A DNA stretch of 64,000 nt from Parcubacteria group bacterium LiPW_30 (GTDB taxonomy: Bacteria > Patescibacteriota > Minisyncoccia > Phycocordibacterales > VMEP01), in NCBI GenBank assembly GCA_007375595.1, contig VMEP01000001.1, positions 10,061 to 74,060 of the forward strand. The letters run 5' to 3'. The notes beneath the pieces are model-generated. The model was not told where the DNA came from. It worked only from the letters and a program-made list of their open reading frames with translations, and made no database searches. This document shows positions 40,399-61,729 of this stretch, piece by piece (positions within the stretch are counted from its first letter, which is position 1; each line of letters begins with the position of its first letter). The position numbers were made by a program, and so were the translations under genes.

Positions 40399-40450
40399 AG
40401 TATGCGCTTTACTTTATCAAAAATTAAGATAATTACTACCTATAACAACA

Positions 40451-40492
40451 GAAAAGGGGCTAGCGTGACAACGCTTAGCCCCTTTCTTTTTT
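40451..40492 (-). terminator. Intrinsic terminator downstream of the 81-aa GC-rich ORF (structure also plausible on the + strand).
   Basis: ggggctagcgtgacaacgcttagcccc (40457-40483) flanked by T runs on both strands. Confidence 0.6.
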
Positions 40493-40496
40493 GGCA

Positions 40497-40742
40497 CTAC
40501 TCGGCCAACGACGACTCGGCTGTTTGTGGCGCCTTGTCATGGCCGTGCTTGTGGCGCCATGCATCTTGGTCGGTTGCATAAAGCTGCCCATCCTCGATTG
40601 CTTCGTGAAATGCCCGTGCGGCCATTTCTCCAGCTTCGTCGTTCGTAAACGCTACCGTCACGACCCATGGGCAGGAACCGTTTCTTTTCTGCTCCACCGT
40701 CGCTTTGGTGAAATTGCGAAGACCAACAACTGATGTCACCAT
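40497..40742 (-). CDS. Hypothetical 81-aa protein encoded in a GC-rich (about 55%) islet; probable horizontally acquired gene.
   Basis: MVTSVVGLRNFTKATVEQKRNGSCPWVVTVAFTNDEAGEMAARAFHEAIEDGQLYATDQDAWRHKHGHDKAPQTAESSLAE; strong SD AAGGAGGAAGTTCATCATG; terminator directly downstream; local GC far above the backbone. Confidence 0.5.
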   Translation of the reverse strand: MVTSVVGLRNFTKATVEQKRNGSCPWVVTVAFTNDEAGEMAARAFHEAIEDGQLYATDQDAWRHKHGHDKAPQTAESSLAE

Positions 40743-40785
40743 GATGAACTTCCTCCTTGTGAACTTGCTGCTTGATAAACTAACA

Positions 40786-41667
40786 CTAATTGCCGATTAT
40801 GTCAATAAAATTTCTGGTATATTTTTCAGCCACTAACCATATTTTTTCCCGTAAAACTGTGTCTTCGGTTGAAGCGTGTGCATTATTTATTTCTTTATTT
40901 ACAAAATATTTCCCCGTAACATCTACCAATAGTGGTGAACTCGCAAGATAAACACTGGTTTCAGCTCCCTCCTTTGAAGAAATTAGTGTCCTTTTAAAAA
41001 AGAAAGATGCTATTGGATTCATTTTGCGAACATTTTTCATAGTCATTTCTGTATCAACTACTCCTGGATGAAGCGCATTTACCGTAACCCCACTTCCCCT
41101 CAAATCTTTGGCTAATTTTTTAGTAAATAAAATTAAAGCTAGTTTTGACTGAGAATAAGCTTTGTACTTATCAAAACTTTTTGCGCTTTCTAAGTCTTCA
41201 AAATCTATCTCCCCCTCCGTATGCATCGAGGACGAGACATTTATTACCCGCGATGGTGAACTTTGTTTTAATAAAGGAAGGAGTAATTTGGTCAATAAAA
41301 ATGGTGCTAAAAAATTTACCGCAAAATTTAATTCAATTCCATCTTTAGAAACCTCCCTTTCTTGTGGCAAAACTCCAGCGTTGTTTATTAGAACATCAAG
41401 TCTTTCGTATTTCTTCTTAAATTCTTCTGTAAGCTCCCTAATTGAACGAAACGACGACAGATCGCAAATCAGATAATTAACATTACTATTTTTAGTTTCA
41501 TTAACTATATCCATCTTTGTCTTCTCCCCATTTTTTTCATCACGACTCGTGAAAATAACATTAGCCCCCATCCGCGCTAACGAAAGTGCCGTTTCTTTAC
41601 CAATACCAGAGGTGGCACCAGTAATCAAACAATTTTTACCAACTATATTCCAATCTTTATTATTCAT
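40786..41667 (-). CDS. Short-chain dehydrogenase/reductase (SDR).
   Basis: NCLITGATSGIGKETALSLARMGANVIFTSRD...LDVLINNAGV...YSQSKLALILFTKKL. The start is moved to the ATG at 41667 (MNNKDWNIVGK), because the ORF-track start would overlap the upstream gene. Confidence 0.8.
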   Translation of the reverse strand: MNNKDWNIVGKNCLITGATSGIGKETALSLARMGANVIFTSRDEKNGEKTKMDIVNETKNSNVNYLICDLSSFRSIRELTEEFKKKYERLDVLINNAGVLPQEREVSKDGIELNFAVNFLAPFLLTKLLLPLLKQSSPSRVINVSSSMHTEGEIDFEDLESAKSFDKYKAYSQSKLALILFTKKLAKDLRGSGVTVNALHPGVVDTEMTMKNVRKMNPIASFFFKRTLISSKEGAETSVYLASSPLLVDVTGKYFVNKEINNAHASTEDTVLREKIWLVAEKYTRNFIDIIGN

Positions 41668-41680
41668 TATTTTTATTAAT

Positions 41681-43099
41681 TTACTCCGCTTCCTCAATCT
41701 CAAAATCATCCGCGGAAAGTTCGTCTTTTCCCTCGCCAACCCCCCGAGCATTAAACATAACACCAAAAATCGCCAAAGCCGACAAGACCACAACAGAAAG
41801 GAGCCATTTTATGGGAAATGCTTGGTTTTGTTTTATTGGTGCATTCTCACCCCCACTAGAAGCTAGAGCGACTGATGCTGCTATATCTTTACCGGAAAAA
41901 CCTTTCTCTTCCCCTTCTTTAACTTCCACAAAAGCACTTGTGTTAGATGACTCGCTTACTTCTTCTTTTGTAACCTCAGTAACCGTTAGATCTCCAAAAG
42001 TCGCTGCTGTCGCGCCACTCGGATATAAAAGAGACGGTTTGTCGTTTTGTTTAAATGACAACCTTGTTGTAAGTGAAGAAAAAGTTATTTTACCCTGCGG
42101 TGTAATTATTGTATTTTGGGGAATAAAAAATTGTTCCTTTTGAGATTTCAATATCCAACCAGACAAATCAAGTTCGTTTTTTGAATTATTTGTAATCTCA
42201 ATAAAATAATCGGTAACATCACCAATTTTTGAAACAACGATTTCAGGTTTTACTACTGAAACCTTAAGACGATCTGATCCCGAAAAATAACCGGACGAGA
42301 CTTCAAGCACTGCGATATATTCTCCTGGATAAAGATATGTATGTGTTATTTTTTTACCTTCTTTTAAAATACCATCGCCAAAACTCCACATATATCGAGC
42401 GTTTTCGAGTGGCTCTTTTTTCAAACCAAGAGCTATGCCATCAAAAGTAATTAGCGCACCAGCAACTGCTATTTTATTGTTTCCAGCTTCAACAATCATT
42501 TGTGGTTCAACTGGAAAATTTGAAACAATATTATTTGTTGTAGAAACAGAAGATTGTTCGGTGGTTTCACTGTTTATACTCCCTACTGAAGACAAATCAG
42601 AACCTGGTGTTGGGGTGGCAGGAACCCAACCACCCGATGAATCTTTTTGGAGTGAGTTTCCATCATTTTTTGCCCCTTGGCTTGATGTGTACTCTACGGA
42701 ATTATCACTTGTAACAGCCTCTTCTTTATTATTTTTTATAGCTAGTTTTTCGCCGTCGTTTAAAGAAAAAGATGATTTAAAGAGTAACCCTGAAAAATTC
42801 GTAAAGTAATTTTTAAAAACGGTTGGATCTTTTGAAACTATCGCGTATCCACTAGGTGGAATTTCTGAAGCGCCGATAGCAGTAATGCTGTGATTGGTGT
42901 CGTTTTCAAAGAAAAATAATTTGGTAAGGTCAACAGAAACAGAGCCGGTATTTTGAACTTCAAACCACTCCCCACCAGAGCTTGCATCAGCATCTTTTGG
43001 GTCATACATTATTTCTGAAAAATAAATCTGCGCGCTGGTGAAAAGCGGTATAAAAAATAAAATTGTTAAAAATTTTAAACTACTTCTCATCGTGACCAA
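41681..43099 (-). CDS. Cell-surface protein: signal peptide, LTD, PKD domain, second LTD-like domain, C-terminal TM anchor.
   Basis: AQIYFSEIMYDPKDADASSGGEWFEVQNTGSVSVDLTKLFF...IPPSGYAIV (LTD); MWSFGDGILKEGKKITHTYLYPGEYIAVLEVSSG (PKD); IEITNNSKNELDLSGWILKS (LTD-like); C-terminal WLLSVVVLSALAIFGVMF. Confidence 0.65.
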   Translation of the reverse strand: MVTMRSSLKFLTILFFIPLFTSAQIYFSEIMYDPKDADASSGGEWFEVQNTGSVSVDLTKLFFFENDTNHSITAIGASEIPPSGYAIVSKDPTVFKNYFTNFSGLLFKSSFSLNDGEKLAIKNNKEEAVTSDNSVEYTSSQGAKNDGNSLQKDSSGGWVPATPTPGSDLSSVGSINSETTEQSSVSTTNNIVSNFPVEPQMIVEAGNNKIAVAGALITFDGIALGLKKEPLENARYMWSFGDGILKEGKKITHTYLYPGEYIAVLEVSSGYFSGSDRLKVSVVKPEIVVSKIGDVTDYFIEITNNSKNELDLSGWILKSQKEQFFIPQNTIITPQGKITFSSLTTRLSFKQNDKPSLLYPSGATAATFGDLTVTEVTKEEVSESSNTSAFVEVKEGEEKGFSGKDIAASVALASSGGENAPIKQNQAFPIKWLLSVVVLSALAIFGVMFNARGVGEGKDELSADDFEIEEAE

Positions 43100-44969
43100 A
43101 AAGTTTTCGTAAAACTTCCTCTGATATTTCTTTGGGGCGAGGGGTTGTCTCTTCTCTTTTTACAAAAACTTCTTTTTTCTCTGGTAATTTATCTTCTGTT
43201 TTATCGCTTTGTTTATGGCTCTCCGGAACAACAACCTTACCGGCTATCTTTCCTTCCGTCATTGCCTTATCAAGCATATTTTTTAAAGCGGAAACATTAC
43301 GAGAAACATTATCGATATCTTTTTTCTTAAGCTCGCTAAGAGAAACCCGCTCTGTTCCATTTTTTGCTTCACGATTATCTACATCATTAAATTTATGCAA
43401 ACGCTCAACGTGGTTATCTTGTTTTTTGTTTTCTGTTTCAATTGGGGTTAATTTAATATCCGCAAAAGCTTTTGCAAAAGCCTTATTTTCTTCTTGTTTT
43501 TTATTAACGACAACACTAGCAACTTCTTTTGCTTTGCTAATATTTTCTTGTGGCTTATTTACACCTACACGAGATAGAAGTGATGGTTTTTCGATATTTT
43601 TATTATCACTACTGTGCCCACTTGAAGTTAAGGGTGCAATTGACAGTGATTTTGGCTTCTTATCTTTCGGTGTAGATGGAACAGGTTCGTACCATTTGGC
43701 GGTTGCACTTTCAACTAAAGCTCGTGGCGATGCATATGTTTTCCTTGTTTCTTCAACAACTTGTTTGGCGAAGGAAACACTCGGTTCTGCAATTGGTGGT
43801 AAAGTTATCGCAGAAAAAGGCTTAGAGCCAATGCCATTAATCATGAGCCTTAGGTATATTTCAGCAAAACCTAAATTAACAATATCTTCAGCGGTAAATT
43901 CTGGAGCAAATTCCTTCTCAAAAACTTCGGCATCGGTTGAACCGACCCTAAAAACAATCATTGTACCAACGTTACCAAACACGGCAGCCTGCACTTCTTC
44001 TGGCATCTGTTCTATATATTGATGGGCAATCGTTAGATTTAATTTATATTTACGGGCCTCTGAAAGAATCTCTGCAAAAGATTCGTTAGCAAACGACTGA
44101 AATTCATCAACGTAAAAATAGAAGTTTGGGAGTCGCGCAAGGTCGTGAGCCGAAACATCAGCGCGCGACATAGCAGCAAGATAAATTTTAGTAACAAGCA
44201 TATTTCCCAAGAGCGCAGAGTTTTCAATACCCATTCTTCCTTTTGAGAGATTCAGTATCAAAATCTTTTTTTCATCCATCATCTTTCTGATATCAAAAGA
44301 TGATTTTGGTTGCCCAATAATATTTCTAATTAAAGGGTTAGAAACAAACTGACCAATTTTATTTTGGATAGCAGCGCCGGCTTCCTGCATATATCTATCG
44401 CCGTATTTAGCAAACTCATCAACCCAAAAAGCCCGCACCGAAGCATCTTTAACATTAGCAACAACAAGGTCGCGATAATCTTTATCCGAAAGCATTCTGT
44501 TAACCCCAAGAAGTGTTGAATCTGGATATTCCAAAAGTGCCAAAAGAATATTGTTCAAAATATATTCCATTCTGGCGGACCAAGCGTCTACCCAAATCTT
44601 TTTAAAAGCGTTCATCAAACCGTTGGCAACTAAGTATCGTTTACTAGGATCAACGTCTTCCATCACATTAAATGAAATCGGATAATCAGTATCAAATGGC
44701 GCAAAATAAACAACATCTTTAATCCGATGCTCTGGAATATAATTTAAAAGTTTTTCTGCGGTACCGCCGTGTGGGTCAATAAAAGCAAGACCTTCTCCGT
44801 TTTCAATATCCTGCACAGCCATGTTCTCAAGAAGGGTCGATTTACCCATACCTGTCTTTCCAATTACGTAAACGTGGCGGGTACGATCTATTGCTTGAAT
44901 ACCAAATTTAAGCCGACGATTGCGGGCGTTGGTTTCAGCAAGATAATTTATTTTTTTGTTATCATCCAC
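43080..44969 (-). CDS. FtsK/HerA-superfamily P-loop ATPase (TraG/TraD/VirD4- or HerA-like 'type IV secretion DNA-binding domain' family). It is cytoplasmic and has a roughly 200-aa K/E-rich disordered tail.
   Basis: VYVIGKTGMGKSTLLENM (Walker A), FIDPHGG, FYFYVDEFQSF (Walker B-like), LTIAHQY. No N-terminal TM segments. Overlaps the downstream LTD gene by 20 nt, which suggests an operon. Confidence 0.55.
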   Translation of the reverse strand: MDDNKKINYLAETNARNRRLKFGIQAIDRTRHVYVIGKTGMGKSTLLENMAVQDIENGEGLAFIDPHGGTAEKLLNYIPEHRIKDVVYFAPFDTDYPISFNVMEDVDPSKRYLVANGLMNAFKKIWVDAWSARMEYILNNILLALLEYPDSTLLGVNRMLSDKDYRDLVVANVKDASVRAFWVDEFAKYGDRYMQEAGAAIQNKIGQFVSNPLIRNIIGQPKSSFDIRKMMDEKKILILNLSKGRMGIENSALLGNMLVTKIYLAAMSRADVSAHDLARLPNFYFYVDEFQSFANESFAEILSEARKYKLNLTIAHQYIEQMPEEVQAAVFGNVGTMIVFRVGSTDAEVFEKEFAPEFTAEDIVNLGFAEIYLRLMINGIGSKPFSAITLPPIAEPSVSFAKQVVEETRKTYASPRALVESATAKWYEPVPSTPKDKKPKSLSIAPLTSSGHSSDNKNIEKPSLLSRVGVNKPQENISKAKEVASVVVNKKQEENKAFAKAFADIKLTPIETENKKQDNHVERLHKFNDVDNREAKNGTERVSLSELKKKDIDNVSRNVSALKNMLDKAMTEGKIAGKVVVPESHKQSDKTEDKLPEKKEVFVKREETTPRPKEISEEVLRKLFGHDEK

Positions 44970-45000
44970 GGCTTTCTTTAAAGTATACTAAAATATGCGC

Positions 45001-45040
45001 CAAACAAAAAACCCTGAGCCACTATCATAGTGACCCAGGG
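45001..45040 (-). terminator. Intrinsic terminator on the minus strand after the small Cys-rich ORF.
   Basis: Minus-strand RNA ccctgggtcact-atgat-agtggctcaggg (12-bp stem including two G-U pairs) followed by UUUUUUU. Confidence 0.55.
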
Positions 45041-45061
45041 TCGTTAGGACGACGCTATTTG

Positions 45062-45235
45062 CTATTCGTCCCCCATCTTTTTTTCAGGGGTGCCATCTTG
45101 AACCATCTTCTTGTTGGCACCCCCGCCATTTTTTTGCGCCATAAGATCAGCGCCCTGTTTCATTCGGCAAAGCGAACGCTCCTCCCATGGAGTATTGCTA
45201 TCGCATTCACCAGCACAATCTTTTTTACACTTCAA
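45062..45235 (-). CDS. Candidate 57-aa cysteine-rich small protein (TTG start) in a GC-rich islet.
   Basis: SD-like aggagaaatagcc upstream of TTG; LKCKKDCAGECDSNTPWEERSLCRMKQGADLMAQKNGGGANKKMVQDGTPEKKMGDE; terminator immediately downstream. The + strand ORF 45059..45283 looks non-protein-like. Confidence 0.3.
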   Translation of the reverse strand: MKCKKDCAGECDSNTPWEERSLCRMKQGADLMAQKNGGGANKKMVQDGTPEKKMGDE

Positions 45236-45343
45236 GGCTATTTCTCCTATCTTTTAGGTTATGGAAACAAAAACGTCGCGTAAAAATATCGCGACTCGTG
45301 TATATTAACACATCTTATTAAAAAAGCAAGTATCCAAATACCC

Positions 45344-46936: not shown

Positions 46937-47614
46937 CTAGCTAACAATCACCACAAACTCTCCACGAATCTTCTCGTTATTTTCCTCAAAAAAGACTAGT
47001 AATTCTGAAGCTGTTCCAAAAAGCATTTCCTCGTGAATTTTTGTAAGCTCTCTGCCTATTGCAATTTTCTTTTCTGGACAAAACTTATTTAAACTTTGAA
47101 GCGCTTTCAAGATTCGATGTGGTGACTCATAAAAAACTACTGGTCTTTTTGTCTCAACAATTTCTTTGAAGATTGTTTCTCTTCCTTTTTTATGTGGTAA
47201 AAATCCCAAAAATAAAAACTCAGATGAAGGAACCCCTGAAATTGATAAAGCAGAAGTTAAAGCTGATGCCCCTGGAATAGCGACGATAGAAAGATCTTCT
47301 CTAGAAAAATTTTCACGAAGTTTTTGTACTAAATGTGAACCTGGGTCAGAGATAGACGGAGTCCCCGCATCTGAAACAAGGACTAATGATTTCCCTTCCT
47401 CGATTAAAGTGAAGATTTTTTTTAATGTCGTGTCGGTTGAATGCGCATCATAGCGGATGAGTGATTTTTTTATTTCATATTTAGAAAGTAGCTTTGCCGT
47501 TACTCTCGTGTCTTCGCAAAGAATCACGTCGACTTCATTAAGAACACGAATAGCCCGAAGGGTTATATCTTCAAGGTTTCCAATTGGTGTCGCAACAACA
47601 TAAAGTGTGGTCAT
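46937..47614 (-). CDS. rsmI: 16S rRNA (cytidine1402-2'-O)-methyltransferase.
   Basis: MTTLYVVATPIGNLEDITLRAIRVLNEVDVILCEDTRVTAKLL...SDAGTPSISDPG. Confidence 0.85.
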   Translation of the reverse strand: MTTLYVVATPIGNLEDITLRAIRVLNEVDVILCEDTRVTAKLLSKYEIKKSLIRYDAHSTDTTLKKIFTLIEEGKSLVLVSDAGTPSISDPGSHLVQKLRENFSREDLSIVAIPGASALTSALSISGVPSSEFLFLGFLPHKKGRETIFKEIVETKRPVVFYESPHRILKALQSLNKFCPEKKIAIGRELTKIHEEMLFGTASELLVFFEENNEKIRGEFVVIVS

Positions 47615-47629
47615 ATTTGAATCCTAAAC

Positions 47630-47672
47630 GAAATATATAAAAAAGTGAACCGGATGCGAATACATCCGGTTC
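47630..47672 (-). terminator. Intrinsic terminator (minus strand) after the GC-rich 183-aa ORF.
   Basis: gaaccggatg-cgaata-catccggttc, a 10-bp perfect stem; followed on the minus strand by ACUUUUUUAUAUAUUU. Confidence 0.6.
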
Positions 47673-47684
47673 GTAGCGCCCGTG

Positions 47685-48236
47685 TCAGTAATAGGCATAC
47701 ACCCTTGGGGTATCTTCTTCTCCTTCAAACAAAAGGTGTTCTCGTGGAGTACCAAGATAAAGAACGACCCAGCCACCCTCGAAAAAAAACCAGACATTGC
47801 CGACAGCACGATTGTCTCCGCTGTCTCCCTTGATGAGATGTGGTTCGCCGAAGTGCGAGAGAATAAAGCTACGCGAACCGGAATACGCGAAGTATCCCCC
47901 CCACTCAGTTCCCTCCGCAACCCAGTTCATGCTGAGGACAAGTTTATCCCCGTTGGTAAACTGGCGATACGTGGCGTAAAGAGGGCCTCGATAAACAAAC
48001 CCATCCATGTGTATTTCCGCGTCGACCATATGGGCTCTCCGCAAAAGATCCGTCGTCCATCGGGGTGTCTCAACCGACCCCCAATTAACAAGGATCTTTC
48101 CAATGGACCTCATTCCTCGGCCAACGAAAACGGCGCTTTTATGTATCGTATTCATCAGTATCGCAAGTACGATAATCTGACAAAACGAAAAATTTTTACG
48201 CATGCGCTCACAAAACAAGCATGTTATTGCTTTCAT
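47685..48236 (-). CDS. Hypothetical secreted protein (signal peptide, W/Y/G-rich beta-type sequence) encoded in a GC-rich (about 50%) islet.
   Basis: The 183-aa minus-strand ORF is protein-like (…GPLYATYRQFTNGDKLVLSMNWVAEGTEWGGYFAYSGSRSF…), has the SD-like GGGGGTGAAAAATG and its own terminator. The overlapping + strand ORF (47682..48326) is R/S/P/K-rich and looks spurious. Confidence 0.45.
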   Translation of the reverse strand: MKAITCLFCERMRKNFSFCQIIVLAILMNTIHKSAVFVGRGMRSIGKILVNWGSVETPRWTTDLLRRAHMVDAEIHMDGFVYRGPLYATYRQFTNGDKLVLSMNWVAEGTEWGGYFAYSGSRSFILSHFGEPHLIKGDSGDNRAVGNVWFFFEGGWVVLYLGTPREHLLFEGEEDTPRVYAYY

Positions 48237-48314
48237 TTTTCACCCCCACACGAAATAGCCACAAACCTCGGCAATGTTAAAAATCAAGAGTTCCTAAAGG
48301 ACCATTATAGCAGA

Positions 48315-49640
48315 CTATTTAAGTAAATTCTCCCCCACTTTATAAACATCTCCCGCCCCCATAGTTATCAAAATATCACTTTCTTTTAGATTGTTTTTTA
48401 GATAATTTTCAACATCAGAAAAATTTAAAAATGACTTAGCTTTATCGCCGATTTTTTCTACGAGCATCTCGCTCTTAATACTTCCATCAAACGGCTCCCG
48501 GGCTGCATAAATCGGTAAAAGTAAAACTTCATCAGCATCATCAAAAGATTTCACAAAATCACCTAAAAGAAGTTTTGTTCGCGAATAAAGATGTGGTTGA
48601 AAAACTACCGTAATTTTTTTGTCGGGAAATTTTTCACGAGCCCCTACGAGTGTCGCCTTAACTTCAGTTGGGTGGTGACCGTAATCGTCGTACACAAAAA
48701 CTCCGCTGTTTGTTTTTCCTTTATTTTCAAATCTGCGCCACGTTCCCTTAAATTCTTTTAGCGCTTTTTTTGATTCAGAAACATCAATTCCACAAACACT
48801 TCCGACGGCAATAGCAACTGCAGCATTTTTTCTGTTGTGTTCCCCTGAAACAGAAATTTCCATGTTCTCCTCATAAAAATCCATGTAATCAATAATCGTA
48901 CAATTGAGTCCTTCTATTACGCTCTTTAATCTTTCGTCGCTACGATCACAAATCAATACTCCTTCTTTAGGGATTAATTCTGCGAAAGACTTGAAGGCAC
49001 TTTGTATGTCTTCTAGGTCTTTGTAGTAATCAAGATGATCATTATCAATGTTTGTTATAACCCCTATAGTTGGGTGAATATTTAAAAACGAACGACGATA
49101 TTCACACGCCTCCACTATAAAATATTCCCCTTCTCCTGCAACAAAATTACTTCTCAAATTGTCAGATCCTTCTAACAACTTGCTCCCAACTACAACTGTC
49201 GGTTCTTTTCCACTATCGATAAAAATTCTCGCAATCATTGCGGTGGTTGTGGTTTTGCCATGAGTACCAGAAACAGCAATTGTTTTTTTATTTTTAGAAA
49301 TTAAGCCTAAGATTTCTGGGTATGATAGACACTTAATTCCCTGTTCTTTTGCCGAAACAAATTCTGGGTTATCCTCCAAAACAGCTACAGTGTAAACAAC
49401 CAAATCAATATTCTCTTTTATATTCTCCTTGTTGTGTCCCGAGAAAATAGTCGCCCCCAAAAGACTGAGCTCATTTGTAATTTCAGAATCTTTTGTGTCC
49501 GAACCGGAAACATTTTTCCCCTCCAAAAGCATCATTCTTGCAATAGCAGAAACACCTATTCCGCCAATCCCGAGAAAATGTATGTTTTGGTATTTTTTTA
49601 AATCTATATTATTTTCCAGAACTAATTTAGTGTTATTCAT
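48315..49640 (-). CDS. murC: UDP-N-acetylmuramate--L-alanine ligase.
   Basis: IHFLGIGGIGVSAIARMMLLEGKNVSGSD...AVSGTHGKTTTTAMIARIF. Confidence 0.9.
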   Translation of the reverse strand: MNNTKLVLENNIDLKKYQNIHFLGIGGIGVSAIARMMLLEGKNVSGSDTKDSEITNELSLLGATIFSGHNKENIKENIDLVVYTVAVLEDNPEFVSAKEQGIKCLSYPEILGLISKNKKTIAVSGTHGKTTTTAMIARIFIDSGKEPTVVVGSKLLEGSDNLRSNFVAGEGEYFIVEACEYRRSFLNIHPTIGVITNIDNDHLDYYKDLEDIQSAFKSFAELIPKEGVLICDRSDERLKSVIEGLNCTIIDYMDFYEENMEISVSGEHNRKNAAVAIAVGSVCGIDVSESKKALKEFKGTWRRFENKGKTNSGVFVYDDYGHHPTEVKATLVGAREKFPDKKITVVFQPHLYSRTKLLLGDFVKSFDDADEVLLLPIYAAREPFDGSIKSEMLVEKIGDKAKSFLNFSDVENYLKNNLKESDILITMGAGDVYKVGENLLK

Positions 49641-51066: not shown

Positions 51067-51088
51067 AAACGGCCAACAAAAAACTATG

Positions 51089-51160
51089 TGCGAGTGGAAG
51101 GAATCGGACCTTCGACCTCTGTCTTATCAGGACAGCGTTCTACCACTGAACTACACTCGC
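51089..51160 (-). tRNA. tRNA-Ile (anticodon GAU).
   Basis: Minus strand GCGAGTG-TA-GTTC-AGTGGTA-GAAC-G-CTGTC-CTGATAA-GACAG-AGGTC-GAAGG-TCCGATT-CCTTC-CACTCGC-A; cloverleaf with 7-bp acceptor, U33, anticodon GAT; CCA not encoded. Confidence 0.85.
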
Positions 51161-51234: not shown

Positions 51235-51272
51235 CTAAAAATTAAAAGCCGCCCCGGTGAAACCGGGACGGC
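51235..51272 (-). terminator. Intrinsic terminator (minus strand) after the 73-aa ORF.
   Basis: gccgccccgg-tgaaa-ccgggacggc imperfect stem; followed on the minus strand by UUUUAAUUUUU. Confidence 0.5.
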
Positions 51273-51286
51273 TTTGTTCTGGTCTT

Positions 51287-51508
51287 TCACCAGTGTACGT
51301 GCAGTATGCTCGCCAACTTGAACGGGGCGAGCCAGAACCAAGCAAGCGGTACGTACTCCCCATTCAGCGCATTGAAGAAAGCCAAAGTGCTGAACGTCAT
51401 GTAAAAAAGAAGCAATACCGCCGTCGCCCCCCAGAAATACTCGGAGGCAGTGCCGTTATTTTCCGGCCGAAAAACGATATCCTTCACATCTCTGCCGAAG
51501 TACAGCAT
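51287..51508 (-). CDS. Small membrane protein (2 TM), hypothetical, in the GC-rich islet next to tRNA-Ile.
   Basis: SD AAGGAGAGGATCATG; ...WGATAVLLLFYMTFSTLAFF...WFWLAPFKLASIL; terminator downstream. Confidence 0.45.
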   Translation of the reverse strand: MLYFGRDVKDIVFRPENNGTASEYFWGATAVLLLFYMTFSTLAFFNALNGEYVPLAWFWLAPFKLASILHVHW

Positions 51509-51584
51509 GATCCTCTCCTTGAGTTATGATACTGATTTGCCTGACTAATTCACATACCGCAGAGCTGGGGCGAATTCAAATTAC

Positions 51585-51749
51585 TTACCCCATCCACAAA
51601 ACGAACAACGTCAGCAAGACAACGACTCCGGTAACAATCGCCACCAAACTAAAATGCCTTTCCCTCTCGTGTAATTCAGGCGATACCGGATCATAGAAAC
51701 GAGGAGGGACCTTGTGCGCTCTCATTTGCCACCACTCATGTGATTTCAT
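51585..51749 (-). CDS. Small (54 aa) membrane protein with a C-terminal TM, hypothetical, in the GC-rich islet.
   Basis: SD CGGAGGTTGAAACCATG; MKSHEWWQMRAHKVPPRFYDPVSPELHERERHFSLVAIVTGVVVLLTLFVLWMG. Confidence 0.4.
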   Translation of the reverse strand: MKSHEWWQMRAHKVPPRFYDPVSPELHERERHFSLVAIVTGVVVLLTLFVLWMG

Positions 51750-51937
51750 GGTTTCAACCTCCGAAACGAGTGTTGTGATTCACAAAGAACCTCTCAGTTT
51801 GTTATCCTAACTCCTATTGAATCACACAATGGCTTAAAAGTCAATACCCCGTACTAGAACAAAGTTCAGTACGGGGTAAGCCTAAAATAATCGCTTTTTG
51901 AGCTACATTATTTTTTTGTTTCTCTCGCTCTCTCTAC

Positions 51938-55606: not shown

Positions 55607-55683
55607 AGGGTGCTGATACTTGCCCCGAATTATAACAAATCAATGTATTTTTATACATATTTAGCCTTGTTTTTAGGGAGTTT

Positions 55684-55706
55684 TAGAGGCGGAGAGATTC
55701 GGCTCC
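55684..55706 (-). other. Degenerate tRNA 3'-end fragment (T-arm/acceptor-like).
   Basis: Minus strand GGAGCCGAATCTCTCCGCCTC resembles GAGAGTTCGAATCTCTCCGCCTCC of the tRNA-Ser below; no full cloverleaf. Confidence 0.3.
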
Positions 55707-55855
55707 ACATAAAATTTTGTCGTCACAAAATTTTTGCTAGCCGCGCCTCGCGATTTTTGTTGCTACAAAAATATCGCTCCGGCGTTCAAATCTCTCGCGC
55801 AATGTGTGCAGACACATTGCTCGCCTCCGCAGTTTTTCACTGCGTTTCAAAACTG

Positions 55856-56009
55856 CGGAGGCGGAGAGATTCGAACTCTCGGTGGGTTGCCCCACACAGA
55901 CTTTCCAGGTCTGCGCACTAGACCGCCCACCGCTAAAGCGGGGTCCCGCCTCATCGCATCCTGCGAGATCCCGCCAAAGGCGGTGAAAAGGCGGTGATAT
56001 GCGACCTTA
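55856..56009 (-). pseudogene. tRNA-Ser(GGA)-derived pseudo-copy. Its 3' 70 nt (D-loop to 3' end) are identical to the intact gene; about 75 nt of unrelated GC-rich sequence are inserted in the D-loop, and the 5' acceptor strand is replaced.
   Basis: 55856-55925 matches 56019-56088 of the intact tRNA exactly, then diverges (cccaccgctaaagcggggtcccgcc...ggcggtgatatgcgacc). The 5' end reads TATAAGGTCGCATA instead of GGAGGCGTCGCATA and cannot pair with the 3' CGCCTCC. Confidence 0.5.
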
Positions 56010-56018
56010 TATACAAAG

Positions 56019-56103
56019 CGGAGGCGGAGAGATTCGAACTCTCGGTGGGTTGCCCCACACAGACTTTCCAGGTCTGCGCACTAGACCGCTATGCGACGCC
56101 TCC
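56019..56103 (-). tRNA. tRNA-Ser (anticodon GGA), intact, with a long variable arm.
   Basis: Minus strand GGAGGCG-TC-GCA-TAGCGGTCTAG-TGC-G-CAGAC-CTGGAAA-GTCTG-TGTGGGGCAACCCACC-GAGAG-TTCGAAT-CTCTC-CGCCTCC-G; anticodon loop CU-GGA-AA; class II variable arm GTGGG/CCCAC. Confidence 0.8.
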
Positions 56104-56124
56104 GCTTTGTATATAAATAAAAAA

Positions 56125-56382
56125 CTAAGAAATTAACTTTTTAAATGCTTCCCCTCCTTTGTATGACTTTATTTTTTTCTCTCTCAGCCAAGCTTCCTTC
56201 TTAGAATCAAAAACTTCTTTGTACACTAATCTCCATGGGCTACCACTTTTTGTTGAACGGTTCGCTCCAGAATTATGATGTTTCAACCTATCATCAATAT
56301 TTGATGTAAATCCAATATAATATCTACTTGTTACTTCGCTTTGAATTATATATACGCTGTACATTTTTACTAGACCGCCCAC
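56125..56382 (-). CDS. Small GIY-YIG nuclease family protein (second copy of this family in the window).
   Basis: MYSVYIIQSEVTSRYYIGFTSNIDDRLKHHNSGANRSTKSGSPWRLVYKEVFDSKKEAWLREKKIKSYKG. Confidence 0.75.
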   Translation of the reverse strand: MGGLVKMYSVYIIQSEVTSRYYIGFTSNIDDRLKHHNSGANRSTKSGSPWRLVYKEVFDSKKEAWLREKKIKSYKGGEAFKKLIS

Positions 56383-56441
56383 CGCTAAAGCGGGATCCCG
56401 CCAACGGCGGTGACCCAGAGGCGGTGATATGCGACGCCTCC
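56370..56441 (-). other. tRNA-Ser 5' fragment (positions 1-14 plus D-loop) split by a 50-nt insert. It overlaps the start of the GIY-YIG gene.
   Basis: Minus strand GGAGGCGTCGCATA + TCACCGCCTCTGGGTCACCGCCGTTGGCGGGATCCCGCTTTAGCGGTGGG + CGGTCTAG, followed 5 nt later by the ATG of the GIY-YIG ORF. The insert is related to the insert in the pseudo-copy at 55926-56000. Confidence 0.45.
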
Positions 56442-57103: not shown

Positions 57104-57115
57104 GTGTTTAGTATT

Positions 57116-58015
57116 CTACCCTACCAAAGCATTAACACGTTCATTAATCGGTGGATGGGTTGAAAAAATTTTTACTAAAAACGGAGTCTTGTTGTCGGAA
57201 TTATTATTCGCCCCAAATGGATTCGAAATAAAAAGGTGCGCCGTCGCGTTATTGGCCTTCACCATTGGACGGTTATATCCCCCAATTTTCTTAAGTGCAT
57301 TTGCAAGACCTTCTGGATATCTAGTCAAAAGTACCCCTGAAGCATCCGCCAAGAACTCCCGCTTACGAGAAACGGCAAGCTGAAGAAGTGTTGCGGCAAT
57401 TGGAGCCAGTATCATTAAAACAATTCCAATAGCCATGATTACCCCACTTGCCTTATTGTCACGGTCATTATTACCACCAAAAAAAGAAGCACGCATTGCC
57501 ATATCTGAAATAATAGTAATAAAACCAACAAGCACCACAGCGACAGTAGAAACCAACATGTCTCTATTCCCAATATGAGAAAGCTCATGAGCTATCACTC
57601 CCTCAAGCTCATTCTTATCTAAAATTTGAAGAAGTCCTGTTGTCACCGCAACAACTGAATGTTCTTTATTTCTTCCTGTTGCAAAAGCATTCGGGGCTTG
57701 ATCATCAATCACATAAAGTTTTGGCATTGGAAGTCCGGCTGTAATTGAAAGATTTTCTACTATTGTGTAGAAGTTGAAAAACTCAGCTCTCGTTGCCTCT
57801 CTCGCGCCGGTCATAGAAAGAACTATCTTGTCCGAAAACCAATAGCTTGTGATGTTCATTCCAATACTGAAAGCAATGGCGATATACAAAATACTTTGAT
57901 TCCCAAAATACAAACTAGCAAACCACCCCACACCAATCACCACAGCGAAAAACACTGTCATGATGAACCAAGTTTTCAGTATATTTTGAGTTTGATGAGT
58001 ATATGGATTGGTCAT
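57116..58015 (-). CDS. htpX: Zinc metalloprotease HtpX (M48).
   Basis: N-terminal TM helices; HELSHIGNRD zinc-binding motif. Confidence 0.85.
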   Translation of the reverse strand: MTNPYTHQTQNILKTWFIMTVFFAVVIGVGWFASLYFGNQSILYIAIAFSIGMNITSYWFSDKIVLSMTGAREATRAEFFNFYTIVENLSITAGLPMPKLYVIDDQAPNAFATGRNKEHSVVAVTTGLLQILDKNELEGVIAHELSHIGNRDMLVSTVAVVLVGFITIISDMAMRASFFGGNNDRDNKASGVIMAIGIVLMILAPIAATLLQLAVSRKREFLADASGVLLTRYPEGLANALKKIGGYNRPMVKANNATAHLFISNPFGANNNSDNKTPFLVKIFSTHPPINERVNALVG

Positions 58016-58073
58016 TAAAATAATAGATTTAGTAAATTAAGTTAATTATTTTTACAAAAGAAAAACAAAAAAT

Positions 58074-58634
58074 CTAGAACTTTACTTCAACTGGATTGCG
58101 AGCACTAGCATCAGCCTCATCTAGTTCAAAGAATTCCATTTTTCCAAAATGAAAAATTGAAGCAATAAGATTTCCTGGGAATGACTCAATTCCGATTGAT
58201 AAATCACGAGCATTCATATTATAGAACCTTCGTGCTGCTTGAATTTTGTTTTCTGTGTCTGCTAATTCATTTTGAAGAGCAAGAAAATTCTGATTTGCTT
58301 TAAGTTCTGGGTACGCTTCCGCTATTGCGAAAATTGATTTCAATGCACCGGAAAGCATATTTTCTGCTGCCGCCTTATCGGCAACACCACCTGCTCCCAT
58401 CGCTTTCGCGCGAGCATCAGATACTTTTTCAAAGGCAGAGCTTTCGTGAGTAGCATAACCTTTAACAGTGTTCACTAAATTAGGAATAAGATCATAGCGA
58501 CGTTTCAATTGAACATCAATATCAGACCAAGCCTCCTTTGTGCGATTAACCAAAGCAACAAAACTGTTGTAAGCAAATATACCCCAAACTACAACCACGG
58601 CGACGACTGCTAAAATAATGTTTATTGGTGTCAT
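58074..58634 (-). CDS. lemA: LemA family protein.
   Basis: N-terminal TM plus NSFVALVNRTKEAWSDIDVQLKRRYDLIPNLVNTVKGYATHE, the conserved LemA core. Confidence 0.85.
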   Translation of the reverse strand: MTPINIILAVVAVVVVWGIFAYNSFVALVNRTKEAWSDIDVQLKRRYDLIPNLVNTVKGYATHESSAFEKVSDARAKAMGAGGVADKAAAENMLSGALKSIFAIAEAYPELKANQNFLALQNELADTENKIQAARRFYNMNARDLSIGIESFPGNLIASIFHFGKMEFFELDEADASARNPVEVKF

Positions 58635-58784
58635 AAAAAAATGAGTTAAAAAAAATTAATAACGATAAATAATATTAGTCGAATTATGACAGGACCACAC
58701 CTAAAATCAAGCAACGAAAAAACTCCCTAAAACATTTTGACTACAAAATGTTCGGGCTAGCCTAGGTGTACCAAAAACCCTAAG

Positions 58785-60428
58785 TTAGTAGCCCATGCTT
58801 GGTGCAGGTGCTTCTTTTTCTTCCTTTGGCTCATCGGCGATCGCGACTTCGGTCGTAAGTAAAACAGCAGCGGCTGAAGCAGCATTTTGAACACCGCTTC
58901 TTGTCACCTTTAGTGGATCAATAATTCCAGCCAAAATCATATCGGGAACTATTTCATCGTTTGCCGCATCATATCCAGAAAAACCTTTTGCGTTTTTAAC
59001 TTTATCAACGATAACAGAACCATCATCCTTACCGGCATTGATTGCAATCTGGCGAAGTGGCGCTTCAAGAGCTTTCAAAAGAATACTAACGCCAACCATG
59101 AATTCCGACTCAAAACTTTTCGCAAATGCCGGTGCGTGTTTTAATGTTGCTTCAACAGACTTCGCGGCCTTAATGAGCGCGACCCCACCGCCAGGGACAA
59201 TTCCTTCTTCGACAGCAGCCTTCGTCGCATTAACCGCATCTTCTATTTTTAATTTCAAATACTTCATTTCTGTCTCTGTTGCTGCTCCAACTTTTATAAC
59301 AGCAACTCCGCCAGTTAATTTTGCGAGTCGTTCTTCAATTTTCTCAACATCAAACTTAGATTCTGTTTTTTCGCGAATTTTTTTCAATTGAGATACTCGT
59401 GCTTCAATATCTGCTTTCTTTCCCTTCCCACCAACAATAGTTGTGCTGTCTTTTGTGGAAATTATTTTATTAGCATGACCCAAAACAGAAACATCAACAT
59501 TTTCAAGTTTAATACCAAGCTCGTCGGAAACAACTTTTGCTCCGGTCAAAACAGCAATATCTTGAAGTAGCTCTTTTTTTCTATCTCCGTACCCTGGCGC
59601 CTTAATTGCAAGCACTGAAAAAGCTCCACGGATTTTATTAACCACAAAAGTAGCCAGTGCTTCGCCGTCAACATCATCAGCAATAATCACAATCTCCTTC
59701 TTGCCGGTTTGGGCGAGTTTTTCAAGCAACGGTAAAATCTCCTTTATACTTGAAATCTTTTTATCGGTAATAAAAATAGGAGCATCTCTATATTCTGCCT
59801 CCATTCTATCGCCATTGGTTATCATATAAGGAGAAATGTACCCTTTATCAAACTGCATTCCTTCAACTATCTCAGATTCAATACCAAACGACTGTGATTC
59901 TTCCACTGTTACCACTCCGTCTTTGCCAACCTTGCCAATTGTGTCTGCAATAATTTTCCCAATCTCTTTAGATTCAGCAGATATAGAAGCCACCTGCATT
60001 ATTTCTTCTTTACTTTTTATCTCCTTACCAATCTTCTTCAAGGCAATCACTACTTCCCCTGCCGCGCTTTCAATCCCCAAACGAATTCCCATAGCGTTCA
60101 CACCCATAGTTGTCTGCTTGATACCTTCAGAGACAATGGCTTGGGTCAAAATAACGGCTGTCGTTGTGCCGTCCCCTGCGTTTTCATTTGTTTTAGTTGC
60201 AACCTCTTTCACAATCTCCGCACCCATGTTTTCAAATTTATCAGAAAGAGTAATTTCTTTTGCGATTGAAACTCCATCGTTTGTGATTGTTGGAGCGCCA
60301 TAGCCCTTATCGAAAACAACATTTCGCCCACGAGGACCAATTGTTATCTTTACTGCGTTTGCAACCTTATCAACTCCATTTTTTAAAAGTTGACGAGCAT
60401 TCTCATTGAAAATTATTTGTTTTGCCAT
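58785..60428 (-). CDS. groL: Chaperonin GroEL.
   Basis: MAKQIIFNENARQLLKNGVDKVANAVKITIGPRGRNVV...AVEEGIVPGGGVALI...C-terminal GGM-like tail. Confidence 0.95.
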   Translation of the reverse strand: MAKQIIFNENARQLLKNGVDKVANAVKITIGPRGRNVVFDKGYGAPTITNDGVSIAKEITLSDKFENMGAEIVKEVATKTNENAGDGTTTAVILTQAIVSEGIKQTTMGVNAMGIRLGIESAAGEVVIALKKIGKEIKSKEEIMQVASISAESKEIGKIIADTIGKVGKDGVVTVEESQSFGIESEIVEGMQFDKGYISPYMITNGDRMEAEYRDAPIFITDKKISSIKEILPLLEKLAQTGKKEIVIIADDVDGEALATFVVNKIRGAFSVLAIKAPGYGDRKKELLQDIAVLTGAKVVSDELGIKLENVDVSVLGHANKIISTKDSTTIVGGKGKKADIEARVSQLKKIREKTESKFDVEKIEERLAKLTGGVAVIKVGAATETEMKYLKLKIEDAVNATKAAVEEGIVPGGGVALIKAAKSVEATLKHAPAFAKSFESEFMVGVSILLKALEAPLRQIAINAGKDDGSVIVDKVKNAKGFSGYDAANDEIVPDMILAGIIDPLKVTRSGVQNAASAAAVLLTTEVAIADEPKEEKEAPAPSMGY

Positions 60429-60440
60429 ATTTTAAAAAAA

Positions 60441-60749
60441 TTATTTGATAATCGCTAAAATATTTTCTTCTTTTAACATGAAGTATTCATCTCCCTCAAC
60501 CTTTACTTCATCTGGTCCGTATTTAGAAAAGATAACCATATCTCCAACTTTAACCTTCATTGGTAAAATTTTTCCTTCATTATTCATACGACCCTCACCA
60601 ACAGCTATAACTTTCCCCTGCTCTGGTCTTTCTTGATCAACTGTTTCTGGAATAATAATTCCACTTTTAGTTTTTTTAGCGTCTTCTTTAGTGAATGGTT
60701 TAACTAAAACTCTGTCTCCGAGTGGAATAATTTTTGTTTCTTTTTTCAT
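60441..60749 (-). CDS. groS: Co-chaperonin GroES.
   Basis: IIPLGDRVLVKP...GIIIPETVDQERPEQGKVIAVGEGR. Confidence 0.95.
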   Translation of the reverse strand: MKKETKIIPLGDRVLVKPFTKEDAKKTKSGIIIPETVDQERPEQGKVIAVGEGRMNNEGKILPMKVKVGDMVIFSKYGPDEVKVEGDEYFMLKEENILAIIK

Positions 60750-60896
60750 ATTTTTGTTTAGTTATTAATAAAATGAATTAATTAATAGAAGCCCTTGAAA
60801 CAACAATCATACACTACTTTATAACAAATACGGCAATATAATATTCCATCTGTATATAGCTGTCAAAATAACTTTTTTTTATTAAATTAATCTGGT

Positions 60897-60925
60897 TTGA
60901 CATAATTATTATTACGTTGTAATAT
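60897..60925 (+). promoter_or_regulatory. Near-consensus sigma70 promoter for the alpha-CTD-like gene (TTGACA-17-TAATAT).
   Basis: ttgaca (60897-60902), 17-nt spacer, taatat (60920-60925), about 50 nt upstream of the ATG at 60976. Confidence 0.5.
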
Positions 60926-60975
60926 CTCAAGAGCAGACCTTTCCTAGTTAATACCACTAAACGGAGGAACACGAA

Positions 60976-61500
60976 ATGGCAGGAATCTCTCACGAGTTAA
61001 GTAAGCTCGCCGACGAACTGAGCAAGATCGAGTCCCAAACCAACGCGGCACACGTGCGCCTCGGTGGTGCGAAAACGAAGCTCAATTCCGCGCAATTGCA
61101 CCTCGATACGATGCAAGCCGCATTCCAATCGGCAGAAAAGCAACTGGCAGATGTGAACGATCGCAAGGCAGCTTTACTGAAGCAAGTCACCGATCTCGTC
61201 AAAGCCGAGATTCCTCCCGTCCGGGATGATTCAATCTCGGCAATGAGAATCGTCAACGCCGCCGAGTTTCCAGTGCTGACACTAACCGTGAGCGATCTCG
61301 AACTCAATGTACGCCCTGAAAATTGCCTCAAAGGGGCTTCCATCTATTACCTCGGTGACTTAGTTCAACTTACCGAAGCCGAGGTCTTGGAAATTCCGAA
61401 CTTCGGCCCCAAATGCCTGCAAGAAACACTGGAAGCCCTTTCTTTTCGTGGCCTCACTCTCGGCATGAAGGTCACGGGCTGGTCACCCCCTCAGCCTTGA
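60976..61500 (+). CDS. Standalone RNA polymerase alpha-subunit C-terminal domain (alpha-CTD) homologue fused to an N-terminal coiled coil; encoded in a GC-rich (about 52%) islet.
   Basis: C-terminal SDLELNVRPENCLKGASIYYLGDLVQLTEAEVLEIPNFGPKCLQETLEALSFRGLTLGMKVTGWSPP aligns residue-for-residue with RpoA alpha-CTD (E. coli [66 protein letters not shown]). N-terminal 90 aa are heptad-rich. Strong SD ACGGAGGAACACGAAATG and a strong terminator follow. Confidence 0.7.
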   Translation: MAGISHELSKLADELSKIESQTNAAHVRLGGAKTKLNSAQLHLDTMQAAFQSAEKQLADVNDRKAALLKQVTDLVKAEIPPVRDDSISAMRIVNAAEFPVLTLTVSDLELNVRPENCLKGASIYYLGDLVQLTEAEVLEIPNFGPKCLQETLEALSFRGLTLGMKVTGWSPPQP

Positions 61501-61528
61501 ACATTCGCATTTGGTGGCCTTAGACACC

Positions 61529-61562
61529 AACCCCCGCATGACATGCGGGGTTCTTCTTTTTT
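61529..61562 (+). terminator. Intrinsic terminator of the alpha-CTD-like gene.
   Basis: aacccccgcatgacatgcggggtt + cttctttttt. Confidence 0.7.
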
Positions 61563-61729
61563 AAAAGAGTAATTTACTACGTTGGATTTCCGAATTTTAA
61601 TACTCTTAAAATACTTTTTTAAAACATTGCGCAGTGCGACGGCACGAGCATAGTAAATTTTTAGCAAAAAATTATACGTGTTTTAAAAAAGTATTTTAAA
61701 AAGATAGATGTTGCATTTTTTACTACCCT

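Follow-up and report, generated by a model that had tools for sequence, protein, structure and literature searches.

The 64-kb stretch of contig VMEP01000001.1 of Parcubacteria group bacterium LiPW_30 analyzed here (the window) contains a class of genes set apart from all others: these islets are led by a Shine-Dalgarno (SD) sequence and have a GC content of about 50-55%, whereas the native genes lack an SD and have a GC content at third codon positions (GC3) of 0.29. Five islets, designated I1, I2, I3, I4, and I6, carry six open reading frames (ORFs), two of which (I4a and I4b) lie in I4, and they encode small, lineage-restricted proteins of a groundwater clade of Parcubacteria (Paceibacterota). 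By its sequence signals each of them is a predicted autonomous transcription unit, in which a sigma-70-type promoter is followed by an SD leader, by one short ORF or two, and finally by an intrinsic terminator. The islets have occupied the same intergenic sites since before the clade diverged to synonymous saturation, and their GC content seems to be at steady state rather than ameliorating. We give an even chance to the explanation that they are an anciently inserted, SD-led class of accessory genes in a cell that otherwise initiates translation without SD, and that their composition is held by selection at the level of the transcript together with allele exchange. The window has a GC content of 36.6%, and the genome of this groundwater organism is smaller than 1 Mb. 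Contigs of relatives (designated by L-numbers) were obtained by looking up those that encode homologues of islet proteins; L006, L100, L101, and L102/L103 span the islets at 40-52 kb, and L093 spans I6. The features on which the argument rests are as follows.

I1, 40447 to 40805, minus strand: islet with promoter (TTGACA 40805-40800, 17-nt spacer, TAGTTT 40782-40777), SD AAGGAGG (40758-40752), 81-aa ORF (40742-40497), and terminator hairpin (40485-40447); GC-rich segment 40.44-40.75 kb, GC 0.531.
I2, 45000 to 45329, minus strand: islet with promoter-like TTGCTT/TAATAT, SD AGGAGA, 57-aa ORF with TTG start (45235-45062), and terminator (45042-45010); GC-rich segment 45.00-45.30 kb, GC 0.462.
I3, 47638 to 48335, minus strand: islet with extended -10 promoter (TGCTATAAT, 48309-48304) overlapping the end of the Mur-ligase gene, leader of ~60 nt with a covarying hairpin, SD GGGGGTGA, 183-aa ORF (48236-47685), and terminator (47672-47647); GC-rich segment 47.62-48.30 kb, GC 0.471.
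I4, 51238 to 51844, minus strand: islet between the terminator of the ribonucleotide reductase (RNR) gene and the promoter of tRNA-Ile, with promoter (TTGACT 51844-51839 / TTCAAT 51821-51816), I4a (54-aa ORF, 51749-51585, SD GGAGGT, C-terminal transmembrane [TM] segment), I4b (73-aa ORF, 51508-51287, SD AAGGAGAGGA, two TM segments), and terminator (51275-51245); GC-rich segment 51.23-51.78 kb, GC 0.486.
I6, 60897 to 61563, plus strand: islet with promoter (TTGACA 60897-60902, 17-nt spacer, TAATAT 60920-60925), leader motif CUUUCC (60939-60944), SD GGAGG (60963-60967), ORF (60976-61500), and terminator (61531-61563); GC-rich segment 60.94-61.56 kb, GC 0.523.
3290 to 3990, minus strand: non-coding GC-rich hairpin segment between an O-antigen-ligase-like gene and murB; GC-rich segment 3.29-3.99 kb, GC 0.462.

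An earlier, sequence-only reading of the window had described these six segments as having 50-55% GC. The enrichment is real, but the figure was slightly generous, since we measured 46-53% within the segments and 32-39% in their 500-bp flanks. The segments exceed same-size windows taken elsewhere in the window by z = 2.5-5.0, and five of the six are richer in GC than every background window. A seventh one at 55.68-56.11 kb (GC 0.545), in the region of tRNA-Ser, had been overlooked. The difference extends to codon usage, with GC3 values of 0.48-0.69 in the six islet ORFs versus a mean of 0.285 (standard deviation, 0.028; maximum, 0.347) in 49 native ORFs. The frequencies of C and of G at third positions are both doubled in the islet ORFs. 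As the increase is no weaker in G-ending than in C-ending codons, it reflects a shift of composition in general, and translational selection for C-ending (NNC) codons was rejected; GroEL/ES are not GC-rich either. The relative synonymous codon usage (RSCU) of the islets correlates with that of the native genes at r = -0.05 and with that of genes on a 54% GC contig at r = 0.47. The deviation suspected from the letters alone is confirmed in GC content, GC3, and RSCU. Along an islet transcript, the GC content is 0.21-0.31 in the promoter, 0.43-0.46 in the leader, 0.48-0.55 in the coding sequence, and 0.48-0.53 in the terminator. The nearest ~40-60 codons of the adjoining native genes have a GC3 of 0.30, compared with 0.28 over their remainder. 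The GC excess is confined to the transcript and ends sharply at its boundaries.

The boundary between the two classes is equally sharp with respect to translation signals. An SD (GGAGG, AGGAG, or GGGGGTGA) is located 3-9 nt upstream of the start in all six islet ORFs, whereas a match of at least 5 nt precedes none of the 49 native ORFs; the leaders of GroEL, GroES, RNR, and other native genes consist purely of A and T. The earlier impression of strong SDs on compact ORFs that are rare among housekeeping genes was therefore accurate. When the entire 64 kb were scanned without bias for SD, start, and ORF, the only convincing intergenic units were the islet ORFs; all other hits fall inside larger ORFs, on the strand opposite to them, or near tRNA-Ser. 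The same split was observed in L006, and the SD is conserved across all islet orthologues. A clean terminator, i.e., a hairpin followed by a run of T, is present at all five islets and not only at four as first counted, and the three terminators with the longest stems within 39.5-59.4 kb are those of I2, I3, and I4. The description of the islets as complete expression units, each with promoter, SD leader, ORF(s), and terminator, was borne out, as were the ORF sizes (81, 57 with a TTG start, 183, 54 plus 73, and 174 aa). Promoters, SD-spacer-start regions, and terminators are kept in the orthologues, and the terminator stems pair despite changes on both sides.

The intergenic sites of I1, I2, I3, I4b, and I6 are occupied by their orthologues in every syntenic relative that was recovered, with GC contents of 0.48-0.56, compared with 0.32-0.47 in the neighboring genes. 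The distances involved are large: core genes of the window and L006 have an identity of 0.36-0.47 at four-fold sites and a synonymous divergence (dS) of at least 1.7, e.g., 1.7 for RNR at 96% protein identity. Presence in the close relatives is not patchy, and only I4a is missing (from L100). Equally GC-rich orthologues at the same sites across saturated dS are, for these five and within this clade, largely the outcome that the sequence-only reading had itself named as evidence against its proposal, the repeated acquisition of small cassettes from a high-GC donor such as a host or a phage. If such imports were recent and not yet ameliorated, foreign-looking codon usage and strong SD and terminator signals would be explained, and so would the absence of I4a from L100, the different ORFs per genome at the site between RNR and tRNA-Ile, and an I6 homologue beside an IS30-type transposase in a 52% GC contig. 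The conservation in all five syntenic relatives argues against it, as do a balanced substitution spectrum, the lack of mobility genes and att-type repeats at the borders, and the lack of relatives in phages or IMG/VR and, for I1-I4, of homologues outside the clade. On present data, recent import is already contradicted for I1, I2, I3, I4b, and I6, and we consider it very improbable as a general explanation.

The picture changes on a deeper time scale. Among the matches listed in a metagenome scan were distant relatives (RsmI identity of ≤65%) that revealed loci without I3. In L018 and L029 (RsmI identity of 55-60%), the Mur ligase and RsmI genes abut; in L016 an unrelated 248-aa ORF lies between them, and L018 has other ORFs in the gap between DUF4015 and the coupling protein (T4CP) of a type IV secretion system (T4SS). 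L006 carries an extra SD-led ORF of 91 aa that is not in the window. The absence of I3, or the presence of other ORFs in the same gaps, marks the islets as lineage-specific insertions on this deeper scale. Of the proposed cassettes from a high-GC donor, the foreign-looking composition, the lineage restriction, and a deep, cassette-like gain thus stand, whereas recency and a phage or host donor do not; with no phage relatives and with I1-I4 confined to the clade, a host donor is unsupported. A parallel in architecture is provided by the phage "morons" known from the work of Hendrix and Juhala, autonomous promoter-ORF-terminator units of deviant composition between conserved phage genes. Like them, the islets have their own promoter, short ORF, and terminator between conserved syntenic genes, differ in composition from their flanks, and are replaced by different ORFs in the same gap in different lineages. 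Unlike morons, they reside among housekeeping genes of a cellular chromosome where phage genes are absent from the vicinity, have no relatives in PHROGs, IMG/VR, or INPHARED, and are stably inherited across saturated divergence with a composition at equilibrium.

This equilibrium is indicated by the direction of substitutions. Polarized changes in the islets amount to 196 from GC to AT and 189 from AT to GC, although the core equilibrium predicts a GC-to-AT fraction of 0.655 (P = 4e-9); at third positions the ratio is 47:41 and the expected fraction 0.77 (P = 1.5e-6). Core genes, with 190:196, are at their own equilibrium. These counts bear on the idea that the islets stem from one ancient transfer out of a very GC-rich donor (GC3 of about 0.9) and are still part-way through amelioration, which we regard as improbable. 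At least ~0.85 substitutions per synonymous site per lineage could have taken GC3 from ~0.9 to ~0.5, and I6 has a slight GC-to-AT excess (44:31). However, I1, I2, and I3 show no net flux from GC to AT (152:158 in total), islet GC is equal in lineages whose backgrounds differ by 7 points, and the I6 homologues in GC-rich contigs reach only 51-57%. Since I6 homologues have 51-57% GC in contigs of about 36% to 57% GC, this gene keeps its own composition whatever the host genome. In the model of Lawrence and Ochman, horizontally acquired islets of ORFans ameliorate toward host composition. The islets of the window resemble such ORFans in their atypical composition and codons, narrow distribution, fast protein evolution, and re-use of gaps, but they are not ameliorating, are GC-richer instead of AT-richer than the genome, and lack mobility signatures.

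Alleles of the islets have evidently been exchanged between lineages, as follows from a mosaic in I3 and from an excess of dS in I2 and I6. The I3 allele of the window has a breakpoint near 48090. In positions 48385-48090, where the Mur-ligase gene ends and the promoter and the first ~50 codons of I3 are located, it shares 95% identity with L007 and 70-80% with L100; in positions 48085-47665, the identity is 92-100% with L100 and 58-85% with L007. The dS of I2 is 1.73 versus 0.24 in the adjacent DUF4015 gene, and that of I6 is 0.50 versus 0.10-0.26 in its flanks. That the islets evolve fast and exchange alleles points to functions in interaction or conflict, not in housekeeping. These features also provide the basis of the main rival explanation, GC-biased gene conversion, according to which recombination is concentrated at the islets, divergent alleles are repeatedly imported there, and biased repair raises GC. 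Apart from the mosaic and the dS excess, it would account for a recombination boundary at tRNA-Ser, with 89% versus 98% identity on its two sides, and for the parallel rise of G- and C-ending codons. It does not account for the confinement of GC to the transcript, the exchanged tract of I3 including the 3' end of the Mur-ligase gene at normal GC, for the conserved SD, or for I6 being slightly less GC-rich than its host in contigs of 54-57% GC. We therefore judge gene conversion to be unlikely as the cause.

That the islets are genes for proteins is supported by ratios of nonsynonymous to synonymous divergence (dN/dS) of 0.13-0.35, which are below 1 in every comparison; core genes have 0.01-0.12. 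Compared with L100, core proteins are 92-99% identical, but I3 is only 91%, I4b 75%, and I2 60% identical. The islet ORFs are under purifying selection, with amino-acid change several-fold to more than 10-fold faster than in their neighbors. GC islands in AT-rich genomes usually are structured non-coding RNA genes, in which case the ORFs would be incidental. The segment at 3.29-3.99 kb indeed lacks a coding sequence and is structured to an extreme degree (z = -12.4), GC is high around tRNA-Ser too, and the islet mRNAs fold somewhat better than shuffled sequences. For the five ORF-bearing islets this explanation is hardly credible, given the dN/dS values, the conservation of frames, ORF lengths, and SD-start spacing, the clear protein domain of I6, the lack of matching Rfam families, and a covariation term of +1.04 for the I6 mRNA. 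The coding signatures of I1, I2, I3, I4b, and I6 refute it; it holds as a description of the segment at 3.29-3.99 kb.

The individual products are small and poorly related to known proteins. I1 (GC 0.55, GC3 0.585) has orthologues between the genes for a short-chain dehydrogenase/reductase (SDR) and a cupin/GT4 in L006 (56% identity), L101 (69%), and L102/L103 (57%), with GC contents of 0.51-0.56. Its leader GGAGGAAGTTCA is conserved in them, the terminator stems covary, dN/dS is 0.17-0.26, and the family of homologues comprises four clusters. The AlphaFold model of I1 has a mean confidence score (pLDDT) of 64, and a Foldseek search of the PDB returned no match at E ≤ 0.001. I2, in the gap between DUF4015 and T4CP, retains its 57-codon ORF in the window, L100, L101, and L006 (dN/dS of 0.17); it is ~60% identical to its L100 orthologue (GC 0.49), although the flanks are 95-99% identical. 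Its peptide is rich in Cys in the window and L100 and rich in His in L101 and L006, in both cases around an invariant Trp, and because the ligands are exchanged in this way, I2 is possibly a small metal-binding peptide. A hairpin with a run of U (AGTCGCGATATTTTTACGCGACGTTTTTGTTTCC, 45262-45294, minus strand) lies between the promoter-like hexamers and the SD of I2 and is kept in the same four genomes; it could be an attenuator or stabilizer or the terminator of the upstream DUF4015 gene.

I3 has orthologues between the Mur ligase and RsmI genes in L100 (91% identity), L007 (81%), L101 (60%), and L006 (58%), with GC contents of 0.48-0.51 and a dN/dS of 0.13, and its family consists of only seven clusters among 5.8 billion proteins. 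The protein is composed of an N-terminal hydrophobic helix and a beta-rich domain. Its designation as secreted could not be established, since what is predicted is a long N-terminal hydrophobic helix in a low-confidence model (pLDDT 61), for which Foldseek returned weak Sm-like barrel matches only and none at E ≤ 0.001 against the PDB. An imperfect 25-nt repeat brackets I3 (47611-47635 and 48233-48257; 76% identity, 622 bp apart), the 25 nt that lead into the RsmI start and take it in being similar to the 25 nt ahead of the I3 start. This could be the remnant of a target duplication at the original insertion or reflect shared constraints on start regions. I4a and I4b are likely small membrane proteins according to their predicted TM segments. 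Homologues of I4b were found at 66-80% identity in four clusters, and the orthologue in L100, located between RNR and tRNA-Ile, is 75% identical (dN/dS 0.28, GC 0.54). The cluster-level homologue searches yielded no homologues of I2 and I4a, and I4a is without a homologue anywhere searched. No matches of I1-I4 were found in Pfam, PHROGs, or NCBIfam, nor in PADLOC, which also covered I4a and I4b as candidate type I or other small membrane toxins with hydrophobic segments in their translations.

I6 is the only islet with a recognizable domain. Its 174-aa ORF is identical to TSC54602.1, recorded as "DNA-directed RNA polymerase subunit alpha." Residues 99-155 match the C-terminal domain of RNA polymerase alpha (alpha-CTD; Pfam RNA_pol_A_CTD, PF03118, 2.7e-16), and residues 97-171 match solved alpha-CTDs with an E value of about 1e-20, so that the alpha-CTD protein first noticed at 60.94-61.56 kb is real. 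An N-terminal domain (alpha-NTD) was not found, and residues 1-80 match only coiled-coil families; I6 is therefore not RpoA. The name given in the record was also rejected on the grounds of length (174 aa versus about 310-340 aa) and of the NCBIfam rpoA equivalog scores (31-81 bits versus cut-offs of 228-523). The protein is predicted to consist of an N-terminal coiled coil and a complete alpha-CTD. It aligns with solved alpha-CTDs (e.g., 1COO and 1LB2) over the whole domain, including R-x-x-N-C-L, G-x-K, and the NW(S/P)P tail, but differs from RNA polymerase alpha in having a coiled coil of ~80 residues in place of the alpha-NTD and in being free-standing and fast-evolving. I6 could act as an adaptor or decoy by binding to DNA elements or activators that the alpha-CTD of RNA polymerase also recognizes.

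The family of full-length I6 proteins (~170 aa) comprises at least 13 clusters at 50% identity. The orthologue in L093 lies between groES and secG (73% identity, GC 0.53; dN/dS 0.35), and the homologues in the 52-57% GC contigs L096-L099 have GC contents of 0.51-0.57, at or slightly under those of their neighbors. These contigs come from the same sequencing project, and their native genes are also without SD; one has a chromosomal context with gyrB and pheST. Any donor of I6 would look like the GC-richer organisms of this project. In other lineages the family occupies different loci, and one of these, on a 52% GC contig, adjoins the IS30-type transposase. At a protein identity of just 46-57%, both the leader ACGGAGGAACACGAAATG and the terminator are still conserved, and in all six homologues an invariant CUUUCC is complementary to the SD GGAGG 20-35 nt downstream. 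This pairing could sequester the SD, but a helix that is short and invariant proves nothing. Among the best matches of I6 are large proteins (P0011, P0018, P0035, and others; up to 1788 aa) with 4-10 tandem alpha-CTD-like domains. A further SD-led, GC-rich unit for a protein of the transcription machinery was seen in L011, a Paceibacterota relative (RNR 61% identical), where a 274-aa sigma-70-family gene (12261-13085) beside RNR has a GC content of 0.50, a GC3 of 0.65, the SD GGAGGAG, and its own terminator.

In the explanation to which we give even chances, the islets would have entered long ago as small cassettes, because clades hold different ORFs in the same gaps and because the alpha-CTD family occurs at other loci, once next to a transposase. 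Thereafter, their composition would have been held by selection on the transcript itself, with allele turnover by homologous recombination contributing. Most likely, this composition is linked to translation that depends on the SD and is probably regulated, in contrast to a default initiation that would need only an unstructured, A/U-rich leader. Rare SD-led genes, e.g., rpsU, in lineages otherwise initiating without SD are the paradigm of the Bacteroidia. The window is similar in that its native genes essentially lack an SD while a small set has strong, conserved ones, and in that the SD of I6 has a possible pairing partner in the invariant UUUCC of its leader; the identities of the genes are unrelated. 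To our knowledge, a link between the SD and a GC-rich coding sequence has not been described. More speculatively, the islets might form an "orthogonal" regulon of small, fast-evolving genes that are kept SD-led and GC-rich (about 50-55%) in hosts of 36%-57% GC and are read only if an anti-SD is available or by a specialized state of the ribosome; we consider this doubtful. The anti-SD motif has been detected in only 48% of Parcubacteria 16S rRNAs (PMC9297842); neither the window nor the loci fetched contain a 16S rRNA gene. In an extreme version, the standard bacterial expression signals might be present because the islets are expressed in the host cell of the episymbiont; the T4SS coupling-protein gene is a conserved neighbor of the islets.

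Several points weigh against our preferred explanation. The mechanism outlined above, including the force that would keep the islet GC high, is one that we infer, and SD-dependent translation of the islet genes is deduced from the conservation of the SD only. Selection on mRNA structure was not demonstrated by folding against shuffles or by RNAalifold on I6: the z-scores of the islet mRNAs are modest (-1.5 to -3.8, terminator included), and the I6 mRNA showed no net covariation (covariation term, +1.04). A test of SD-led status against GC3 across 40 loci was noisy, many matches being spurious out-of-frame ORFs. The polarized counts are parsimony-based, with outgroups that are divergent; non-synonymous sites were counted as well, recombination blurs the signal, and in I6 alone (44:31) the deviation is not significant (P = 0.14). 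I4a has its own SD and ORF alone in its favor and, being without a homologue and missing from L100, is a putative coding sequence. The models of I1 and I3 are of low confidence (pLDDT 61-64), and neither protein has a family or fold match. Finally, the analysis covers one 64-kb window and a handful of relatives.

Two tRNA genes of the window bear on the question of mobility.

tRNA-Ile(GAU), 51088 to 51160, minus strand: found with ARAGORN and Rfam, directly downstream of I4.
tRNA-Ser region, 55610 to 56435, minus strand: not an SD-led islet; tRNA-Ser(GGA) 56018-56103, GC-rich hairpins 55690-55850, partial copy 55853-55926 (72 nt), GIY-YIG ORF 56125-56382, and direct repeats 55917-55950 / 56369-56402.

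The site between RNR and tRNA-Ile is the most variable one, with I4a and I4b in the window, I4b only in L100, and an unrelated SD-led TM ORF of 91 aa in L006. This variability is real, but there is no integrase, and tRNA-Ile is clean in the window, in which respect it differs from the targets of tRNA-specific integrative elements; the view of the islets as recent high-GC imports at tRNA hotspots is mostly wrong. In L100 (~10300-10800) and L006 (~6180-6550), tRNA-Ile is flanked by a pseudo-copy of its 5' half and by a copy of its 3' half plus flank, and GC-rich palindromes, CCCGCCCGTACCGAAGTACGTTCGGGCGGG among them, break up the 5'-half copy of L100. The arrangement suggests that a small element entered the anticodon loop and brought a tRNA copy along. 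Neither these half-copies nor that at tRNA-Ser in the window bound I4. At the borders of the islets, no integrase, att-type repeat, or convincing target duplication was detected, the weak 25-nt repeat at I3 (76%) being the only candidate. Integron cassettes were ruled out as well: the islets are scattered single units ending in plain terminators, and no integrase-type domain occurs among the ORFs scanned. Phage relatives were absent from PHROGs and, for I1, I3, and I6, from IMG/VR; in a tblastn search of INPHARED, I6 matched only rpoA of bacterial or contaminated records and I3 had no match. Homologues of I1-I4 outside the clade were not found.

The tRNA-Ser region is of a different nature. 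A segment of ~450-500 bp with the GIY-YIG gene, the sole mobility-type gene found in the 64 kb, and a full copy of tRNA-Ser is missing from the sister strains L001, L010, and L100 and looks like a homing-type mobile cassette with target duplication. The identity between the window and L001 jumps from 89% to 98% across it. The GIY-YIG ORF, the tRNA copy, the partial copy, and the direct repeats are reminiscent of GIY-YIG homing cassettes and tRNA-targeting elements, but the element is AT-rich, has neither SD nor integrase, and is unrelated to the SD-led islets.

The segment at 3.29-3.99 kb was correctly described as full of hairpins and without ORF. It is a chain of long, near-perfect hairpins without a credible ORF, and its minimum free energy is -216.7, compared with -140.5 ± 6.2 for shuffled sequences. 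A promoter-like TTGACT-17-TAGTAT is located ahead of the chain. No second copy was found in the window or in any locus fetched, and Rfam searches of the window at gathering scores and of 3.0-4.3 kb at permissive ones yielded only the two tRNAs. An array of palindromic elements and a novel RNA are possibilities.

The genes near the islets encode glycosyltransferases, an SDR, an LTD/PKD protein, a TrwB-like coupling protein, DUF4015, an RsmI-type methylase, a Mur ligase, a racemase, class II RNR, a pilin, a CDP-alcohol phosphatidyltransferase, an M48 peptidase, LemA, GroEL/ES, SecG, and a solute-binding protein; a cluster for glycan synthesis makes up the first 38 kb of the window. An assembly chimera or artefact was ruled out, because the islet units recur in the same context in independent assemblies (ENA, JGI, and Logan).

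Compositional anomalies are routinely taken as evidence of recent horizontal gene transfer (HGT). The anomaly of the islets is old, syntenic, and apparently at equilibrium, and two equilibria of base composition would therefore coexist within a few hundred bases and coincide with two modes of translation initiation in a genome of less than 1 Mb. If this is true genome-wide, it would call for caution in the detection of HGT in bacteria of the candidate phyla radiation and would offer a handle on the organization of translation in lineages reported to lose the anti-SD. It would also provide a shortlist of small proteins, evolving fast and subject to recombination, as candidates for a part in episymbiont-host or phage interaction, including a free alpha-CTD that could rewire transcription. 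A class of compositionally stable, SD-led genes inside an AT-rich genome without SD would be less ordinary than plain HGT.

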